A DNA stretch of 63,884 bases, counting the filler, from an uncultured Acidimicrobiia bacterium (lineage in GTDB: Bacteria; Actinomycetota; Acidimicrobiia; Spongiisociales; JAOTWH01): NCBI GenBank assembly GCA_964347285.1. It is 3 parts of 3 records of this genome, joined end to end, with 100 filler letters (N's around TTAATTAATTAA, not from the genome) between each part and the next. Parts side by side here need not be neighbours in the genome. Positions count along the whole stretch, not along the records: positions 27,545 to 54,896 come from CAYFYE010000023.1; 2 more parts are not named here. One strand, 5' to 3'. The position numbers and the translations under genes are program-made. Shown here in pieces: positions 27,445 through 61,866 of this stretch (position 1 is its first letter; every line of letters begins with the position of its first letter). The notes under the pieces were generated by a model that worked only from the letters and a program-made list of their open reading frames with translations, was not told the origin of the DNA and searched no databases.

Positions 27445-27544
27445 NNNNNNNNNNNNNNNNNNNNNNNNNNNNNNNNNNNNNNNNNNNNTTAATTAATTAA
27501 NNNNNNNNNNNNNNNNNNNNNNNNNNNNNNNNNNNNNNNNNNNN
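27445..27544. other. Artificial contig linker
   Basis: N44-TTAATTAATTAA-N44; stop codons in all six frames; genes truncated on both sides. Confidence 0.97.
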
Positions 27545-34753: not shown

Positions 34754-36145
34754 ATGCAGCGACAATTGATCAAGTACGTCCTCGACCGGGAGGACTTCGG
34801 GTCCGAGGTGACGGTCGCCGGATGGGTTCGGACACGCCGGGATTCGAAGGGCGGCTTCTCGTTCCTTGAACTCAACGATGGCTCGAGCTCTACCGGACTA
34901 CAGATCATCGCCGATGACGGCCTCCCCAACTACGAGTCGGAGGTCCTGCGTCTCGGCATCGGCAGCGCCGCCCGGATCACCGGTGAGTTGACCGAGTCGC
35001 CCGGGGCGGGACAGCGGATCGAGCTCAAGGCGACGGAGGTCGAGGTGTACGGCTTCGCCGACCCCGACACGTACCCGCTCCAGAAGAAGCGGGTGTCCTT
35101 CGAGCGGCTGCGGGAGATCGCCCACCTGCGCCCCCGCACCGGCACCATCGGGGCCGTTACCCGGGTCCGCAATGAGCTTTCCTACGCCACCCATCGCTTC
35201 TTCCAGGATCGGGACTTCCTGTACCTGCAGACGCCGGTGATCACCGCCAGCGACGCCGAGGGCGCCGGAGCCATGTTCCGGGTGACCGCGCTCGATCCGG
35301 CCGGGCCCCCGCGCACCGATGGAGGGGCCGTCGATTACTCCGAGGACTTCTTCGGCAAGCCCACCTTCCTCACCGTGAGCGGACAGCTCAACGCCGAGGC
35401 CTTCGCACTCGCCCTGGACCGGGTCTACACGTTCGGTCCCACGTTTCGAGCCGAGAACTCCAACACCCGCCGCCACCTGGCCGAGTTCTGGATGATCGAA
35501 CCGGAGATGGCCTTCGCCGACCTGAACGACAATGCCGACCTGGCCGAGGACTACGTGAGGTACCTGGCCCGGTCGGTCCTGGACAACTGCGGCCCCGATC
35601 TCGAATTCTTCCACCGACTAGACGAAGGGCTCCTCGACACCCTCGCCTCCGTGGCCGATACCGAGTTCGAGCGCATCACCTACACCGAGGCGATCGACGT
35701 GCTCGCTCGGGCCGACGAAGCGTTCGAATACCCGGTTGCCTGGGGAGCCGATCTCCAGTCGGAGCACGAGCGCTACCTCACGGAGCGAGCGCTAGGGAAG
35801 CCCACGATCGTCACCGACTTCCCGTTCGACTTCAAGGCCTTCTACATGCGCCGCAACGACGACGGCAGGACCGTGGCCGCCATGGACGTGCTTGTGCCGC
35901 GGGTCGGCGAGATCGTGGGCGGCAGCCAACGTGAAGAGCGGCTCGACGTGCTGGTCGACAGCATGGCCCGCAAGGGCCTGGACCAGGACCATTATTGGTG
36001 GTATCTGGATCTACGGCGCTTCGGCAGCGTCCCCCACTCCGGCTTCGGGCTCGGTCTGGAACGAGTCGTCCAGTTCTGCACCGGGATGCAGAACATCCGC
36101 GAAGTCATCCCATTTCCCCGCTCGCCACGCAGTGCCGAGTTCTGA
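34754..36145 (+). CDS. asnS: Asparagine--tRNA ligase
   Basis: [56 protein letters not shown]. Confidence 0.96.
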
Positions 36146-36172
36146 CGCCGGGCTCCTCGCCGTATTGAGAAT

Positions 36173-36985
36173 CTAGACGGCCGCCCGACGCCTGCGGTGA
36201 AGCTCGAGCAAGGGTTTGTAGAGGCCGTAATGCTTCATGCGGGACAGCGTCAGGTTCCGGTAGTTGAAATCGCCGCTTTGCGTTTGCAAGAACTCTGCCA
36301 CGTCTGCCTCCAGTGAGGCACCGTATTCTCGCCGATAACCTTCCAACAACTCCTGCTTCACATAGTCGTAGAGCTGGAGGTCGGCGGCGTGGGCTTCGGC
36401 GATCATTTCCCGCGTCCTCTCCGTCGAGAGCAGGCGCTCCTTGATGGCATTGGAGGAAGCGACGTTGACTCGTTTGTAGGAGATGTTCAGCTCGTTGAAC
36501 CGGAGTCTCTTCAGCAACACCATCGATTCATCGAAATGCTCGGCCAGGCCCACGAACATGTTTCTCTTCTCGATGATGCGGATCGCTTCGTTCACATCAT
36601 CAACGCCGGCAATCTGCTTCGTCGCCGGATTACGCGTCCAATCCTGCTGGATCCAGTCTTCGAAAGCGATCTTCTTCCCCGATACTTCCTTCTTGTACTG
36701 ATAATGCGAAGCCGATGACTTGACGGGATCGCGGATCATCGTGAAATAGTCGAACCGGTCGCCATCGTCCCCGAGGTCGACGTAGCCGGTGACACGATGC
36801 CCGGCAATGCTCCTCAGATTCGGATACAGCTTGCGCAGGCGCTCCAGATCTTGGATCGAGAAGGGCGGCCCGGTCCACCGGGCGTGCCAGGGCTCCACCT
36901 GACAGTGTCGCAGACCATAGGTACTACGAAGGATATAGGTCACGGTCGTGCCACCCGACTTACTCAGATGAACAAATACACGCAT
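36173..36985 (-). CDS. Sulfotransferase family 2-like protein
   Basis: 5'-PSB motif FVHLSKSGGTT; 3'-PB motif IRDPVKSSASHY; FVGLAEHFDES. Confidence 0.8.
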   Translation of the reverse strand: MRVFVHLSKSGGTTVTYILRSTYGLRHCQVEPWHARWTGPPFSIQDLERLRKLYPNLRSIAGHRVTGYVDLGDDGDRFDYFTMIRDPVKSSASHYQYKKEVSGKKIAFEDWIQQDWTRNPATKQIAGVDDVNEAIRIIEKRNMFVGLAEHFDESMVLLKRLRFNELNISYKRVNVASSNAIKERLLSTERTREMIAEAHAADLQLYDYVKQELLEGYRREYGASLEADVAEFLQTQSGDFNYRNLTLSRMKHYGLYKPLLELHRRRRAAV

Positions 36986-37018
36986 GAGCCACCTCGTGCC
37001 ATTGGCGGATAGACCGAC

Positions 37019-39277
37019 CTAATCGAACTCTTCAAATACTTGTTCGCCTCCGCTGACCGCACCGAGTATCGCCTCTGCGACTTCCGGCCGCATGAACCAC
37101 TCGGGAGGTGTTTCGCCCCGTAGGAACATGGCCCTTGCTTCGGTGCCGCTCAGCAAGTAGCGCCTATCTCCGTCCGGCTCGGACTCGCCATTCACCTCCA
37201 CATAGCCGTCCAGTTGTTGCGAATAGACGACTTCCCTGAACTTGACGATTGTCATCCCCAGGTCGGCAAAGGCGTCGAACAGCTCATGCGAGGCATAGGG
37301 ATCGTAGAAGCTTCCCACACCGGTGTGATCGCGACCAACAATGAAATGACTACAGCCAAAGTTCTTTCGACACAGGGCCGTGAAGAGAGCCTCTCGAGGT
37401 CCGGCATATCGCGAGAACGTGGCAAATGCGGCGCAGACCACCGTATCCTTCGGGTAATAGCGGTCCATCATCAACTCGTAGCTCTTGATGATGTATTTGG
37501 GCTTGAAGTCTCCCGGCTTCTTTCGACCGACCACCGGTTGCACCAGAATGCCGTCACAATGCGTTTCTTCCATTGCCCGCAGCTGCATGAACTCGTGACC
37601 TCTGTGGATGACATTCCGAGTGTGGAAGCCCAGGACCCTCGCCCAGCCGCGTTCGTCGAAGAGTTTGCGTACCTGTTTCGGCGTCAGCTCGTACGCTCTG
37701 GTTTCTGATTGCCTCCCCTTGACCAGGTCTATTCGGCCGGCCAGCAAAACCTCCCCGGCGGCTTGGATCGTCCTGACCCCAGGATGGTCACGATCGCTCG
37801 TGCCGTACAGCCGCCGGGCTGTGTCCTCTCGGTCGAACTCGAACTTCTCATCCAAGCGAAGAAGAGCCATGACTTCGCTGCGATCATCGGTCAAGCCAAC
37901 GACCTGGCCGATCGACAAGCTATCTGCCGTGTCCTTTGCGACATCTAGGGTGATCGGAAGCGGCCACACGGTACCGTCGGCCAACCGCATGTCCGACAAG
38001 ACCGAGCGGAAGTCCTCCGCGCCCATGAAGCCTTCCAATGGGCTGTAGGTTCCGACTGCTATTTGCTCTACTTCCATCTGCTTGTTCGGATCGAGCCTGA
38101 CCTTGGGCAATGCGGCCAGGAAGTCTTTGTCGGGCACCTCGCTGAGAACGCGGTTCACCAAGGATCCTCCGTGGGGCGGTATGAGGGACCCCGTGCCGTT
38201 CTGCAGCAGGTAGGGTGAACGCTCGAGGACCTGAACAAACCCCGGGTAGCCGCGATCGTGGCGACTCTCGCTCATGACTGCCTCCGCGTGGAGTATCAGC
38301 CTGTTCAGCATGTTGATGCACTCCATGGGATGTCTGCCGATGGCCGTTTCCGCCGCCAAGGTGAGGCCCTGCGCTCCATCGAGGATTGTGTTCACGACGT
38401 CCTGGACTTCGGCTCGGGTCGGCTTCCGATTCTCGATCATCGTTTCGAGCAGGTTCGTGGCGACGAAGACCCCGGTATCGTGTTGACGGGCCTTGGAGAT
38501 GATCACCTTTTGGGTGAACGGTATCTTCTCTATCGGGATCTCTTTGCTGAGATCTCCCCGATCGATCAATACGAGATCTGATTTCTCGATGATTTCGTCG
38601 ATGTTCTCCAGCGCATCGACCGACTCGACCTTCGAAATGATCTTCATCTTGCCTTGTGTGGCCCTTCTCGCCTCATCGATTGAGGCTCCGGACCGCACAA
38701 ATGAGACCGCAATGTGCTCTATCCCGGCTTCCAAACCGAGCTCGATCGACTGATAGTCCTTCGATGACAAAGGTGGGAGGTCCAGCTTCTTCGCGAAGAC
38801 GGGATCCACGACGACGGCCTTGTTTCTCCCGACGTAGCCCCCAAAGATGGCCCTGGCCGTGACATAACCCGCTGATGCTGTGGATACATCCATGACTCGC
38901 AAAATCAGCGTGTCGAAGTCGACGTGGATCAAATCACCCGAGGACAATTGGTTGATTACGAAGCCCGGCCGGAGATGAATGTTGCGAGCGTCGCCGACTA
39001 TCTCGTCCGAACAAAGCCTGACATCATCGTTCTCGGCAAAATAGACAATCTCATTCTCCAGATCTCCGGTCCTGACCTGGGATCCTTCGGTGTCGAGGAT
39101 GAAAGGTATGCCAACGCTCTGGGCCATTCCGATGCAGCGTTCCAGGTACTCGAGACTGGAGTGGGACATGTTCACCCTGACGAAGTCGACGCCCCGGTCT
39201 TTCATCTTCGTCAGATAGGTCTCGGTGTGCGAGGCCGGCCCGAGGGTGACGATGATCTTCGTTCTTCTTTGGTCCAC
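37019..39277 (-). CDS. Pyruvate kinase-like domain fused to sulfate adenylyltransferase (Sat-type ATP sulfurylase)
   Basis: PK part: TKIIVTLGPAS, RVNMSH, RGDL, PTRAEVQDV, AETAIG. Sat part: PHGG.L, YSPLEGFM, WPLPITL, HTRNVIHRGHE, YAGPREA, IVGRDH, LSGT. One uninterrupted frame. Confidence 0.88.
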   Translation of the reverse strand: MDQRRTKIIVTLGPASHTETYLTKMKDRGVDFVRVNMSHSSLEYLERCIGMAQSVGIPFILDTEGSQVRTGDLENEIVYFAENDDVRLCSDEIVGDARNIHLRPGFVINQLSSGDLIHVDFDTLILRVMDVSTASAGYVTARAIFGGYVGRNKAVVVDPVFAKKLDLPPLSSKDYQSIELGLEAGIEHIAVSFVRSGASIDEARRATQGKMKIISKVESVDALENIDEIIEKSDLVLIDRGDLSKEIPIEKIPFTQKVIISKARQHDTGVFVATNLLETMIENRKPTRAEVQDVVNTILDGAQGLTLAAETAIGRHPMECINMLNRLILHAEAVMSESRHDRGYPGFVQVLERSPYLLQNGTGSLIPPHGGSLVNRVLSEVPDKDFLAALPKVRLDPNKQMEVEQIAVGTYSPLEGFMGAEDFRSVLSDMRLADGTVWPLPITLDVAKDTADSLSIGQVVGLTDDRSEVMALLRLDEKFEFDREDTARRLYGTSDRDHPGVRTIQAAGEVLLAGRIDLVKGRQSETRAYELTPKQVRKLFDERGWARVLGFHTRNVIHRGHEFMQLRAMEETHCDGILVQPVVGRKKPGDFKPKYIIKSYELMMDRYYPKDTVVCAAFATFSRYAGPREALFTALCRKNFGCSHFIVGRDHTGVGSFYDPYASHELFDAFADLGMTIVKFREVVYSQQLDGYVEVNGESEPDGDRRYLLSGTEARAMFLRGETPPEWFMRPEVAEAILGAVSGGEQVFEEFD

Positions 39278-39641
39278 GGCTCTCTCTGCACCGAGGGGTC
39301 GCCGGGCTGGGTGATGCAGCCAGAACCTGGTGGCTCGGCCCCACGGCATATCGGCGGTCTGCTTCGTGGGCGAACCATGAGCTCCCTGGCCTTGCTCCGC
39401 CCGGTGGAAAGGATACCACTTTAAGTGGTTAGGGTGACCCAGCGAGGCCGAGAGGACCACCCCCCGCGTTCGTGGATAGCCTGCATGAGATGCGCGCCCT
39501 CAGCGCGAGTCGACGTCTGACCGATGACCGGGCGCCCCTCAGTTACTCCACAGGTTCGAAGGGGTCGCCCGTGGAGGCCGATCTGCGCCCCCCTCGCCCC
39601 CCCGAAGAGAGGGAGCGCCCTTCGGAAGCAGCGACGGTCGC

Positions 39642-52383: not shown

Positions 52384-54896
52384 ATGAGAGGGGCCATTCG
52401 GGCATATCGCAGACGTGGCGTTCGGCCGGGGAGGGTGACGAGAGCTGCCACAGCTCTCCTCCTCGTGCTCACGGTTACCGCGCCGGCCCATGCAGTCGCA
52501 CCGCCGGCAGGCCTCCTGGCGTCCGCGCAAACCGACACTATCAGCGCGCCCCCCGCGGAAGAGGTGGCGACCCTCATCCAGACGATTGACCTGCTCAGGC
52601 ACGAGGAACAGTCGATCTACGTCGAAGCGGCAGGCGGCACCTTCACCCTGAGCCTCGAGGGGCAGGGTCCGACCGGAGACCTTGACTATCAGGATGCTCT
52701 CATCGGGGTCAACGAGGTGCAGAAGCTGTACAACGACAGCGGGCCCGTCGACGAGCAGCAATCGATCCACAACGACGCCTCGGGCGGCACCTTCACGATC
52801 AGTTTCGACGGGCAGGGTCCGACGGGAGATTTGGAGTACAACGCCCCAATCAACAANNNNNNNNNNNNNNNNNNNNNNNNNNNNNNNNNNNNNNNNNNNN
52901 NNNNNNNNNNNNNNNNNNNNNNNNNNNNNNNNNNNNNNNNNNNNNNNNNNNNNNNNCGGGTCCGGGAGTTCCAGTGATCCCTGGCTGATTACCTTCCTCG
53001 ATCCCGGCGGCCAAGACATGGCCGACTTGACCACCGCCGACAACTTCACCGACGGTTCATCTTCCACCATCACCACGACTACCCAGGGATCGGATGGTGG
53101 AACGTTTACCCTCAGCTTCGATGGGCAAGGGCCGACCAACCCCATTGCCCACAACGCCGACCCGTCCACCATCAAATCCGAGCTCGAATCGCTTGACAAC
53201 ATCACAACGGTGGCGGTCTCCGGTTCGGGGACGCTTGCGTCTCCCTGGCAGATAGCTTTCGTGGACCCGGGTCACCAGCCGGTCGCCCAGATCACAACCA
53301 CGGATAGCTTCCCTGGCGCTGCTGCGTCGATGATCTCCACCACGACCGAGGGCACCCGCAGCCTCGAGGCGGAACTCGAACTGCTCCCCAACGTGGCCGA
53401 CGTCACCGTTACCGGAGCCGGCACCTCGGATACGCCGTGGGTGGTCACCTTCCTCGACCCGAAGCCGAAGGACCGCGATTTGCTGGTAGCCGACGATACG
53501 AATCTGGGCGGTGGCTCAACGACCATCGGCGAAGAGGTGGCCGGCCTGCTGATCATCGACCCGGCCGGGGTCACTTACCTCGAGCACAAGGACGCTCTGT
53601 TGGTCGCCGATTCGGAAATCGACGAGGAGGCGGACCTGTTCGACGGTTTCAACATGTGGGAGATGACCCGGGACGCCGATGTCCACACCACCGGGCTCAG
53701 CCCAGAGCCGGGAAGGAAAGAGCCGACGGGCCTCGCCTACGATCCGGGCAGCCGCCACGCCTTCATCGTGAACGACCGCAAACCACCGGAGGTGTACGAG
53801 GTCGACCCCGGGGCCGACAAGGAGTACGGAACCGGTGATGATGTTGTCGTAGAGCTGTTCAGCGACAATCCCGACTTCTGGGATACTGCTCTCCCGGCGA
53901 CCGACGTCGAGGACGTTGCCTACGACTGGGCGTTGACCCCGGGCGACATCACCGACGACAGCCTGTTCCTGGCCGACGGACTCAACCAGATCGTGTACCG
54001 GGTGAGGCCCGGGCCCAACGGGCAGTTCGACGGCACAGACGATGTCGTGACGAGCATCGACCTCTTCACTCTGGCCGACATCCATGACGCAGAAGGCCTC
54101 GAATACCGCCCGGCGTCCGACACGATCCTGGTGCTGGAGAGCGCCCTCAACGATGCCATCCACGAGTTGACCAAGGATTTCCAGATCCTGCGCACCATCG
54201 ACATCTCGTTCCTGAAGAGGCCCGGGATCGCCCTCAAGCCGGCAGACCTCGCACTCGCACCCGCCTCGGACGACTCGGGGCCGGATCACCTGTACGTCGT
54301 CGACCGGGCGGACGACAACAATTCCGCCATACCGGCTCCCCAGGATGGGCTCATGTACGAACTGAGCGTTCCCTTCGAGAACTTGGCGCCGTTCGTCGAC
54401 GCCGGCCCCAACCAGGTGGTTCCATTCGGCACCCCGGCTCAACTCGACGCACTGGTCTACGACGACGGACAACCCCCACCTCCGGGCCCGCCCGCCATCA
54501 CGTGGACGCAGCTGAGCGGACCCGGCACGGTCACCTTCTCAGATCCCAACGCCGCGTCCACGGTCGCCAGCTTCAGCGCACCCGGCGCCTACGTAGTTCA
54601 AATCGAGGCGAACGACGGAGCCCTGACCACCACCGAGACGGTCGATATTCAGGTGACGCAGGTGAACGAAGCGCCGAACGTGTTCGCCGGTCCAGACGAA
54701 ATCATCACCTGGCCCGCTGGTGCGAGCTTGTCCGGCTTCGCCACCGACGATGGGCTCCCGAATCCCCCCGGGGCGTTCACAACCCGGTGGACCAAGGTGT
54801 CCGGGCCGGGAACGGTGACCTTCGCAGATCCCAGCTCGACGACGACCACGGCCAGCTTCTCTGCCTCCGGTGTGTACGTGTTGCGCCTCACCGCCG
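52384..54896 (+). CDS. Large secreted protein: nested repeat domains, a beta-propeller and PKD/REJ-like Ig repeats; spans a scaffold gap and is truncated at the contig end
   Basis: Signal peptide ending APAHA; three GGTFT(L/I)S..GQGPT repeats; DPAGVTY / EPTGLAY / DVEDVAY / DAEGLEY blades; two VDAGP..W..SGPG.VTF.D repeats. Confidence 0.8.
52857..52956. other. Scaffold gap (100 N) inside the repeat region of a gene
   Basis: N run without a linker, flanked by the same repeat family. Confidence 0.95.
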
Positions 54897-54996
54897 NNNN
54901 NNNNNNNNNNNNNNNNNNNNNNNNNNNNNNNNNNNNNNNNTTAATTAATTAANNNNNNNNNNNNNNNNNNNNNNNNNNNNNNNNNNNNNNNNNNNN
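54897..54996. other. Artificial contig linker
   Basis: N44-TTAATTAATTAA-N44. Confidence 0.97.
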
Positions 54997-59100: not shown

Positions 59101-61866
59101 GGGCGACACCGTGACCTACAGCTTCTTGGTCACCAACACCGGCGACGTGACCCTGACCTCATACACCCTGTCGGAGATCTCCTTCTCCGGCTCGGGGACC
59201 CCCTCGGCCTTCGACTGCACCGGCCAGCCCACCACCTTGGGCCCGGGTGACGCCGCCACCTGCACCGCCACCTACGTCATCACCCAAGACGACGTCGACG
59301 CCGGGCTCATCGACAACGAGGCCCGGGTCGACGCCGCCACCGCCAACGCCGGCTCGGTCTTCGACCAGGACACCGATCGGGTCCTCATCGACCAGGACCC
59401 CGGCGTCGGCTTGGACAAGTCCCACGGCTACGCCGACCCCGCCGACGNNNNNNNNNNNNNNNNNNNNNNNNNNNNNNNNNNNNNNNNNNNNNNNNNNNNN
59501 NNNNNNNNNNNNNNNNNNNNNNNNNNNNNNNNNNNNNNNNNNNNNNNCAGGACCCCGGCGTCGGCTTGGACAAGTCCCACGGCTACGCCGACCCCGCCGA
59601 CGACCTGGCCCCGCCCGGGGCGTCGCTGGGCGACACCGTGACCTACAGCTTCTTGGTCACCAACACCGGCGACGTGACCCTGACCTCATACACCCTGTCG
59701 GAGATCTCCTTCTCCGGCTCGGGGACCCCCTCGGCCTTCGACTGCACCGGCCAGCCCACCACCTTGGGCCCGGGTGACGCCGCCACCTGCACCGCCACCT
59801 ACGTCATCACCCAAGACGACGTCGACGCCGGGCTCATCGACAACGAGGCCCGGGTCGACGCCGCCACCGCCAACGCCGGCTCGGTCTTCGACCAGGACAC
59901 CGATCGGGTCCTCATCGACCAGGACCCCGGAATATCCATTGTGAAAGAGGGCAGTCTCGACACGACGGTGGTCAACCCGTCTGATCGGGCCGACGTAGGA
60001 GACCAGATCACCTACACGTTCACGATCACCAACACCGGCAACGTGACCCTGGACAACGTCACCGTCAACGACGCGGTGGCCGGAGTGGTGGACTGCCTGA
60101 TCGGCAGCATGGCACCGGGTGACGTGGACACCACGACCTGCCTGGGGATGTATGCATTGACCCAAGCCGACATCGATGCCGGCGTAGTCTTCAACCAAGC
60201 ATTCGTCACCGGCGACGACCCCAACGCCGATCCGGTCGGCGACGACGATCGGAACGCCGAGGACGTACCCCAGGTGCCCGGTATCGAGATCGCCAAGGAT
60301 CCCGACACGCAAACGGTGACCCTGGGTACCGACGCTCAGTTCACCATCACCGTCACCAACACAGGCAACGTCACTCTGACGAACGTGACGGTCTCGGACC
60401 CCAACGCAGCAACCTGTGATGCCGATCTCGGCACGATGTCGCCCGGGGATGCGAAGCAAAGGCTGTGCGCGGTCACCGTGACCGATGACCTCGTGAACGT
60501 GGCGACGGCAACGGGCACGCCACCTGCCGGCGAACCCGTCGATGACGAGGACGACGCCGCCGTCAATGCAATCCCGCAGATTTCAACAGCCAAGTCTGCC
60601 GTGGGCAGCATCGATGAGCCGGGCGGGGTGGTGCTCTTCACCGTCACCATAAGCAACGATTCTGGCGCCAGCGATCCGGTGACCCTCATCTCCATTGTTG
60701 ACGACGTCTATGGAGACCTGACCAGCCCCGCCAACCCGGCTATCTCGAACTCGACGTGTGCGCTGGTGACCATCCAGCCGAGGGGTTTCTACACCTGCAC
60801 CTTCGAGGGCGAGTTCATCGGTAACGCCGGTGAACTCGAGAAGGACACCGTGAGGGCCGAGGGTGTCGACGATGAGCAGACGCCGACAAGCGATGAGGAT
60901 GACCACACGATCGCCCTCAACGACGTCCCATCGTCGGTCGAGGTGACCAAGACGGCGAACCCGACCAGCGTGCCGGAGACGGGTGGCAACGTCACCTTCA
61001 CCGTGACCATCAAGAACACCTCCGTAGCGGATGTGGTCATGATCGATACTGTGGTCGACGACCTCTACGGCGATGTTTCGGCCGGCTGCGACAAGCCATT
61101 GCCGACATCGCTGAGCATCGGTGAGACGCTGACCTGCCGGTTCACTGAGCTCGTGTCTGGGGCGGCTGCTTCCGACCACAGAAACGTTGCGACTGCCAAA
61201 GGCACGGACGACGACGGCCAACAGGTTGAGGGCAGCGACGGTGCGGTGGTCGATCTCACGCCGGTCATCGACCTCGAGCTGAACGTCGTGTCCCAGCCGA
61301 CCCTTGGCGACGTTGGCCAGCAAGCGACTTACACGATCATCCTGACCAATCAGGGCCCATCGGGTGCAACCGGGGTGGTGGTCACCAACACGCTGCCGCC
61401 CGGCGTCACCTACCTCTCCGACACCAGCGGCGGGGCCTTCGATCCGGCCACTGGGCTGTGGACGGTGGGCAACCTGCCCGCCGGATCGACGGTGCAGTAC
61501 TCGATCGTGGTCGTCCTGACAACTGAAGGCCTCCACGTCGACACGGCTGAGGTGACGGCGGCCAACGAGCAGGACAGGGATTCGGTACCCGCCGACGGAA
61601 GCGGTGACGACTGGGATCGGGACACCATCCAGGCGGTTCTGGTGCTGCCGGTGACGCTGCCGGAGACATTGCCGGTGACGGGAGGCCCGCACACCGATCG
61701 GTTGGTGCTGACCGGCTTGGTGCTGGTGCTGCTGGGCGGGGCGCTCGTGCTGGCGGCGAGGAGCTCTTACCCGGCGTTGGCCGCCGGCGGAGGTGCGGGC
61801 AGTTGGGGTCGAGCACCCGCCGCCCGGCGACAACGATCGGATCGAGGAGAACACGAAGGCAACTGA
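56195..61866 (+). CDS. Large sortase-anchored surface protein: Glu/Pro stalk, prealbumin-like and DUF11-type Ig repeats, LPVTG motif; spans a scaffold gap
   Basis: Signal peptide; many (V/I)TNTG(N/D)VTL repeats; LPVTG followed by a TM helix and basic tail; ORFs 56195-59641 and 59566-61866 are one gene broken by the N gap. Confidence 0.88.
56387..56803 (+). repeat. Coding 15-bp degenerate tandem repeat (EExPA-type pentapeptides) with higher-order units
   Basis: QEPADEEPLPEELLA occurs three times; EESPPEEPPAEEV occurs twice. Confidence 0.9.
59021..59930 (+). repeat. 372-bp apparently identical tandem repeat (124-aa Ig-like domain); copy number unresolved across the gap at 59448-59547
   Basis: Units start with CAGGACCCCGGCGTCGGCTTGGAC at 59021, 59393 and 59548. 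Confidence 0.92.

Follow-up and report, generated by a model that had tools for sequence, protein, structure and literature searches.

A gene in a 63,884-nt stretch of DNA (hereafter the window) from an uncultured Acidimicrobiia bacterium (assembly GCA_964347285.1) encodes in a single frame the barrel and lid of a pyruvate kinase (PK) and a complete ATP sulfurylase (Sat), and is followed on the same strand by a gene for a sulfotransferase-like protein. The catalytic residues of the PK half are intact, and throughout the family the fusion is linked to sulfotransferases and to the kinase of adenosine 5'-phosphosulfate (APS). We propose, with a probability of about 0.7, that the PK-Sat protein activates sulfate and has a built-in unit for recharging ATP: the PK half would recycle ADP at the expense of phosphoenolpyruvate (PEP) alongside APS kinase.

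Structure of the fusion gene

The two genes, which we call the cassette, and their surroundings comprise the following features.

37019..39277, minus strand: PK-Sat fusion gene, 752 aa, GTG start at 39277
38315..39268, minus strand: PK barrel and lid, residues 4-321, of a "PK-lite" type without the C-terminal allosteric domain (PF00224, 9.6e-70)
38183..38314, minus strand: linker between PK and PUA_2, residues 322-365, with lower model confidence; bridged by contigs from two runs
37718..38182, minus strand: PUA_2 domain of ATP sulfurylase, residues 366-520 (PF14306, 8.5e-46)
37064..37696, minus strand: ATP sulfurylase catalytic domain, residues 528-738, with FHTRN, HRGH and GRDHTG (PF01747, 1.1e-76)
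36986..37018, minus strand: 33-nt spacer with GAGGTGG ahead of the next ATG (read directly)
36173..36985, minus strand: sulfotransferase gene, Sulfotransfer_2/Gal-3-O-sulfotransferase-like, 270 aa (PF06990, 3.7e-8; relatives; Atlas score)
39278..39641, minus strand: upstream intergenic region, probable promoter region of the cassette (read directly)
36050..39350, no strand: low-GC islet, 0.53-0.62 against 0.64-0.72 beside it (GC profile)

The longest open frame around the fusion runs from 37019 to 39460 on the minus strand (813 aa). We chose the GTG at 39277 as its start because relatives of 750-757 aa start at the same place. The initial annotation had described a 752-codon frame with a PK barrel and lid lacking the C-terminal domain, followed by a complete Sat, and both Pfam and NCBIfam agree with this description: the PK, PUA_2 and ATP sulfurylase domains were all matched. 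The PF00224 match in the 813-aa frame covers positions 2-328 of the 328-position profile, so that barrel and lid are complete, and Pfam finds no PK_C domain in the same frame. As expected from the absence of this domain, the score for the full-length PK equivalog TIGR01064, 292.3 bits, narrowly misses the cut-off of 306.4. The Sat half passes the NCBIfam cut-offs of NF003166 (417.9 against 387 bits) and TIGR00339 (363 against 322.95). An APS kinase domain (PF01583) was not found by Pfam in the fusion protein. Modelled as a whole, the protein has a confident structure (mean pLDDT 90.3, pTM 0.85) except for the linker blocks at residues 331-370, which fall to 59-77.

The short spacer and its GAGGTGG suggest that the fusion and sulfotransferase genes are co-transcribed. 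No sigma-70-like promoter site was found in the upstream region (39278..39641), and terminator-like sites at the cassette are no more frequent than in shuffled sequence.

The fused frame in other assemblies and genomes

Contigs assembled from two sequencing runs cross the domain junction near 38200 without an indel. A 3148-nt contig from the first run (X1, possibly the source sample itself) spans positions 36213-39360 with two substitutions and neither indel nor joint, and a piece from a second sample (X2) matches positions 38196-38413 without difference. The three-domain architecture recurs in at least 119 listed protein clusters that are 66-73% identical to the window protein, the window's own partial copy excluded; their source names are either "pyruvate kinase" or "sulfate adenylyltransferase". 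The same single frame is present in 11 species-representative loci and in four further genomes of the order. The domain junction is thus confirmed as sound, and the fusion is one intact gene.

Active-site residues and a family signature

The best solved relative of the PK half is the PK of Geobacillus stearothermophilus (2e28, 1.7e-52), and its solved relatives are ordinary pyruvate kinases. We aligned 17 fusion rows and 70 canonical PKs to the solved enzymes; the 17 rows hold 16 distinct sequences, since L004 and L094 are the same protein. Twelve residues (R34, N36, S38, H39, D62, R69, K153, K216, E218, D242, T274 and E310) are kept in all 17 rows, as they are in the 70 canonical PKs. We take these residues to bind PEP, Mg2+, K+ and the nucleotide, as in rabbit muscle PK.

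Other positions set the family apart. E64, D239, N275 and L276 of the PK half, together with H552 of the Sat half, are each found in 136/136 aligned family sequences, E64 replacing the lysine of the canonical DTKGP. Further fixed differences at canonically conserved positions are S/A66, F121, A154, V/T156, D158, S244, K/R245, T297 and A308. The motifs quoted in the initial annotation (DTEGS, DRGDLS, ATNLLE and FHTRN) are all present in the frame. Judged from the alignments, the presumed catalytic set of the PK half is intact and the fixed signature marks a distinct PK-lite subfamily without the C-terminal domain.

The Sat half has as its best solved relative the ATP sulfurylase of Methanothermococcus thermolithotrophicus (8a8d, 2e-93, query residues 6-378). 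Among what we take to be the active-site motifs of Sat (QxRN, HxxH and GRDHAG), HRGH is present, QTRN has become HTRN, and GRDHAG has become GRDHTG (T652 in 135/136 sequences).

The wider PK-lite family

Used alone as query in an exhaustive search, the PK domain recovered 15080 proteins at E <= 0.001, and we classified the best 150 representative clusters with purpose-built HMMs. PK-Sat accounts for 85 of these clusters. Three are PK-Sat-APS kinase and two are PK-APS kinase (P0248 and P0338, confirmed by Pfam), while one is a tandem PK that Pfam resolves as PK-PK-adenylate kinase (P0279). Fifty have the PK barrel, alone or joined to some other partner, and about 30 of these are 324-376 aa long; the remaining nine, lowest in the list, are canonical PKs with PK_C. 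The PK-lite signature is common to the fused and stand-alone forms and absent from these nine canonical PKs. Pfam also shows further PK-lite architectures: Phosphodiest (PF01663)-PK in P0361, Phosphodiest-PK-PUA_2-Sat in P0367 and PK-CBS in P0269.

Gene neighbourhoods of the fused and stand-alone forms

The 16 distinct fusion loci are the window, L004 (identical to L094), L005-L014 and L095-L098. At least one sulfotransferase gene lies nearby in 12 of them. An APS kinase is found near the fusion in L007, L014 and L010, in the last of which it carries a fused CysQ-like domain; in L009 it lies behind Sat in the same protein. Genes around the fusion loci often encode flippases, Wzy, Wzz, glycosyltransferases and sugar-modifying enzymes. 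Proteins with Big_9/cadherin-like and metallophosphoesterase domains adjoin PK-Sat in two phyla (L005:5155-7707, L011:1-6573, L097:16-1212 and L098:3592-4719); possible roles are those of a sulfated surface protein or of a partner in nucleotide processing.

The stand-alone form is often found beside APS kinase. Among the best 80 metagenome loci matching a stand-alone PK-lite profile, 69 carry a stand-alone gene, 10 a fused PK-Sat and one no open reading frame (ORF). An APS kinase gene is directly adjacent and on the same strand in 35 of the 69 stand-alone loci, separated from PK-lite by -88 to +95 nt. In 17 of the 69 the contig ends too soon for the neighbours to be judged, so that the proportion among informative loci is 35/52. 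An adjacent Sat gene occurs in 2/69. Gene order in L135 is TauE, sulfotransferase, PK-lite, APS kinase and glycosyltransferase; in L153, PK-lite lies beside three sulfotransferases; and in L111 its neighbours are housekeeping genes only. Co-occurrence with sulfation genes, which the initial annotation had raised for the fusion, is seen for both forms. A complex prediction for the PK-lite protein of L101 with its adjacent APS kinase scored 0.00, which amounts to no verdict and weighs neither for nor against binding.

The downstream sulfotransferase

The initial annotation placed a sulfotransferase-like gene 33 nt downstream on the same strand. The spacer (36986..37018) has this length, and domain, relatives and Atlas clusters support the assignment. 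PF06990 matches the 270-aa protein with 33.1 bits against a cut-off of 27, partially, over residues 130-217 only. Its 418 relatives, most of them without a name, are about 271 aa long, and PF03567 and PF06990 were found on relatives; its nearest Atlas clusters are Sulfotransfer_2 families (score 0.97). By eye we spotted HLSKSGGTT and RDPVKSSASHY, which resemble the 5'-phosphosulfate and 3'-phosphate motifs with which this superfamily binds 3'-phosphoadenosine 5'-phosphosulfate (PAPS). A sequence search against solved structures gave no match and a profile search gave one, heparan sulfate 6-O-sulfotransferase, with whose motifs both of these align in a weak match (E 3.4). The structure model, built from a 27-row alignment, is poor (mean pLDDT 47.7, pTM 0.31).

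Homologues of this sulfotransferase lie near PK-Sat in L004 (58% identical), L011 (62%) and L005, and three pairs of sulfotransferase and PK-Sat matches share a longest-contig value (21997, 34284 and 42376). The homologue in L005, a Chloroflexia metagenome-assembled genome (MAG), is broken over three reading frames (L005:14892-15669) and is either a pseudogene or an assembly error. The acceptor of the sulfotransferase would most likely be a surface glycan or something similar. Two more weak Sulfotransfer_3-like genes are encoded elsewhere in the genome, on contigs C73 and C131.

Sulfate activation in this genome

The assembly comprises 2.63 Mb in 187 contigs and is 90.5% complete. As the initial annotation had noted, no APS kinase is visible in the window, and an HMM search of the window ORFs found none. 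One is encoded elsewhere: contig C169 carries a Sat-APS kinase gene (L001:766-2556, minus strand) with an intact P-loop, GLSGSGKS. A separate canonical PK is also encoded in the genome.

The Sat domain of the C169 protein reads QTHN and GQNHAG at positions where the solved fungal enzymes and 18 of 20 relatives read QTRN and GRDHAG; the other two relatives are unreadable there. By analogy with the APS kinases of T. denitrificans and E. histolytica, this Sat domain may be inactive. All three changes are explicable by single G-to-A changes.

No PF01507 protein (PAPS_reduct, the CysD/CysH type) was found in the 90.5% complete assembly, and sulfate activation in this genome may serve sulfation only, not assimilation. 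Given the altered Sat domain on C169 and the lack of a CysD/CysH-type protein, the fusion may be the only intact sulfurylase in the genome, C169 being a 2.6-kb contig whose binning is uncheckable.

Distribution and origin of the cassette

A full-length fusion is present in 6/301 genomes sampled from the order, a sample that includes the unpublished genome G022 in the denominator only, and in 0/7 other genomes of the same family. Four of the five other fusion-bearing genomes of the order also encode an APS kinase. In the phylogenetic tree the window protein pairs with that of G189, an Acidimicrobiia MAG, with support of 100/100, inside a group composed mostly of Chloroflexota sequences. The proteins of the remaining four fusion-bearing genomes of the order branch far from it, in a clade of about 43% identity. 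Rarity in the order and position in the tree fit acquisition by transfer. This one Acidimicrobiia order thus harbours two very different PK-Sat clades, L095-L098 (about 43% identical to the window protein) and the window with L004 (about 70%), which suggests separate acquisitions.

The window is a concatenation of contigs, with runs of N at 27445-27544, 52857-52956, 54897-54996 and 59448-59547 marking the joins, so that gene order across these runs is not real. On contig C23 the cassette is flanked by a class II tRNA synthetase gene on one side and by SnoaL and M20 peptidase genes on the other, and it is not embedded in a glycan cluster. When 40 relatives were searched at the DNA level, conserved synteny around the cassette was not recovered and hence no insertion site was definable, nor were repeats of a mobile element seen on its flanks.

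Proposed function and alternatives

A review describes the sulfurylase step as highly endergonic and APS as a potent product inhibitor that competes with ATP; it also notes that ADP binds sulfurylase much as APS does. In a biocatalytic cascade, according to the relevant passages of PMC9885120, PAPS synthesis by PAPSS1 required regeneration by PK and PEP.

From the sequences we infer enzyme activities, a direction of flux and an acceptor as follows. The Sat half would convert ATP and sulfate to APS and pyrophosphate (PPi). APS kinase, encoded elsewhere in the genome, would turn APS into PAPS with release of ADP, and the PK half would transfer phosphate from PEP onto that ADP. The result would be high ATP and low ADP around two enzymes inhibited by ADP-type ligands, so that PEP would pay for the 3'-phosphate. 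The downstream sulfotransferase would then consume the PAPS. The initial annotation had suggested a local supply of ATP by the PK domain from PEP and ADP, and this part of its proposal fits the invariant catalytic residues, the fusions to APS kinase and adenylate kinase, and the operons with APS kinase. The fusions and operons are what recycling of ADP predicts, and the opposite of what replacement of APS kinase would predict. Because PK-lite is fused to APS kinase and stand-alone PK-lite genes adjoin it, the PK would work with APS kinase and not instead of it.

Several observations weigh against this proposal. Sat itself releases no ADP, so that joining the PK to APS kinase would be more direct than joining it to Sat. 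Around the active site and within the lid, many positions conserved in canonical PKs are changed (K to E64, P to S66, D to F121, A to D239, G to S244, Q to N275, M to L276 and S to A308), and three residues are inserted after K153, so that the domain might use a phosphoryl acceptor other than ADP or need a cation other than K+. Fifteen of the 52 informative stand-alone loci, each with at least 700 nt on both sides, have no adjacent APS kinase or Sat, although APS kinase lies farther away in two of these (L150 and L157), and many of the 80 metagenome loci are related, so that the counts of loci are not independent.

A bolder version of the ADP-recycling proposal, which we offer tentatively and think rather unlikely, would make PK-lite a specialised partner in sulfate activation and not a general ATP regenerator. 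The invariant changes would then reflect an altered acceptor, an altered cation need or the direct passing of nucleotide to APS kinase or Sat; PAPS synthesis would be driven by PEP and uncoupled from energy charge; and the fusion would perhaps be the sole working sulfurylase here, the resident Sat-APS kinase having lost three active-site residues.

The PK domain might instead be silent, serving as a scaffold or as a regulatory domain that senses PEP or nucleotides. Precedents, in the parts of the sources that concern these proteins, are the regulatory APS-kinase-like domain of fungal ATP sulfurylase (PMC2275785) and the inactive sulfurylase-like domains in the APS kinases of E. histolytica and T. 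denitrificans (bioRxiv 10.64898/2026.04.02.716029). Every presumed catalytic residue of the PK is, however, invariant across clades that are only about 43% identical, and PK-lite also exists as a stand-alone gene. We therefore regard a silent domain as improbable.

Still less probable is the initial annotation's more speculative idea that the PK domain has acquired a new phosphotransfer role, for example on APS as an ADP analogue, that replaces APS kinase. The lack of an APS kinase in the window and the family-wide differences from canonical PKs at the periphery of the active site and in the lid would agree with it. Pyruvate kinase chemistry, however, acts on a terminal phosphate and not on a ribose 3'-OH. 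An APS kinase with an intact P-loop is present on C169, and others occur in four of the five further fusion-bearing genomes of the order. APS kinase is moreover fused behind PK-Sat in L009 and three representative clusters, is fused to PK-lite in others, and adjoins 35 stand-alone PK-lite genes. The downstream protein also shows a sequence that resembles the 3'-phosphate-binding motif of PAPS users. An assembly chimera, or the frameshift fusion of two separate genes, might be suspected in a fragmented MAG of 187 contigs, but has a negligible chance given a junction bridged by a separate contig assembly without indel and a single frame shared with 119 other listed clusters, 11 species-representative loci and four further genomes of the order.

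Comparison with known systems

Pyrophosphatase, APS kinase and GTP hydrolysis are the known remedies for the uphill and product-inhibited activation of sulfate. If ADP recycling by PK-Sat is borne out, this natural fusion would add one more, with PEP as the source of energy. PK-Sat is widespread in uncultured bacteria and archaea that presumably sulfate surface glycans, and the enzymatic synthesis of sulfated sugars would gain a ready-made enzyme for regenerating PAPS cheaply. In line with the initial annotation, which knew of no characterised PK-Sat fusion, a search of full-text literature, whose coverage leaves out subscription journals, found no paper on one. New here are the PK-lite signature, the PK-APS kinase and PK-PK-adenylate kinase forms, the count of operons and the state of the resident Sat domain.

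The PAPS synthases, represented by the Sat-APS kinase of Aquifex aeolicus (2gks, which matches the Sat half at 9.1e-78) and human PAPSS1 (1x6v), likewise join a Sat with a PUA-like N-domain to a helper from the PAPS pathway. The partner in the fusion described here is an N-terminal pyruvate kinase and not APS kinase, and the QxRN motif reads HTRN. Stand-alone Sat of M. thermolithotrophicus, the closest solved relative of the Sat half, has FQTRN and GRDHAG, whereas the fusion family has FHTRN and GRDHTG. Canonical PKs (2e28 and E. coli PykF, 1pky) align with the barrel and lid end to end, and their catalytic residues are kept here; unlike them, the fusion lacks the C-terminal allosteric domain and carries invariant substitutions around the active site and within the lid.

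The fusion of Sat to inorganic pyrophosphatase in stramenopiles and haptophytes, as presented in the pertinent part of PMC2275785, also provides a fused helper that shifts the unfavourable sulfurylase equilibrium. There the helper removes PPi, whereas the PK here would remove ADP and supply ATP, and lineage and domain differ. The in vitro synthesis of PAPS with PK and PEP, as outlined in PMC9885120, combines the same three activities for the same reason, the avoidance of a dead-end complex of enzyme, ADP and APS; what is a laboratory mix of separate enzymes in that scheme is a natural fusion here.

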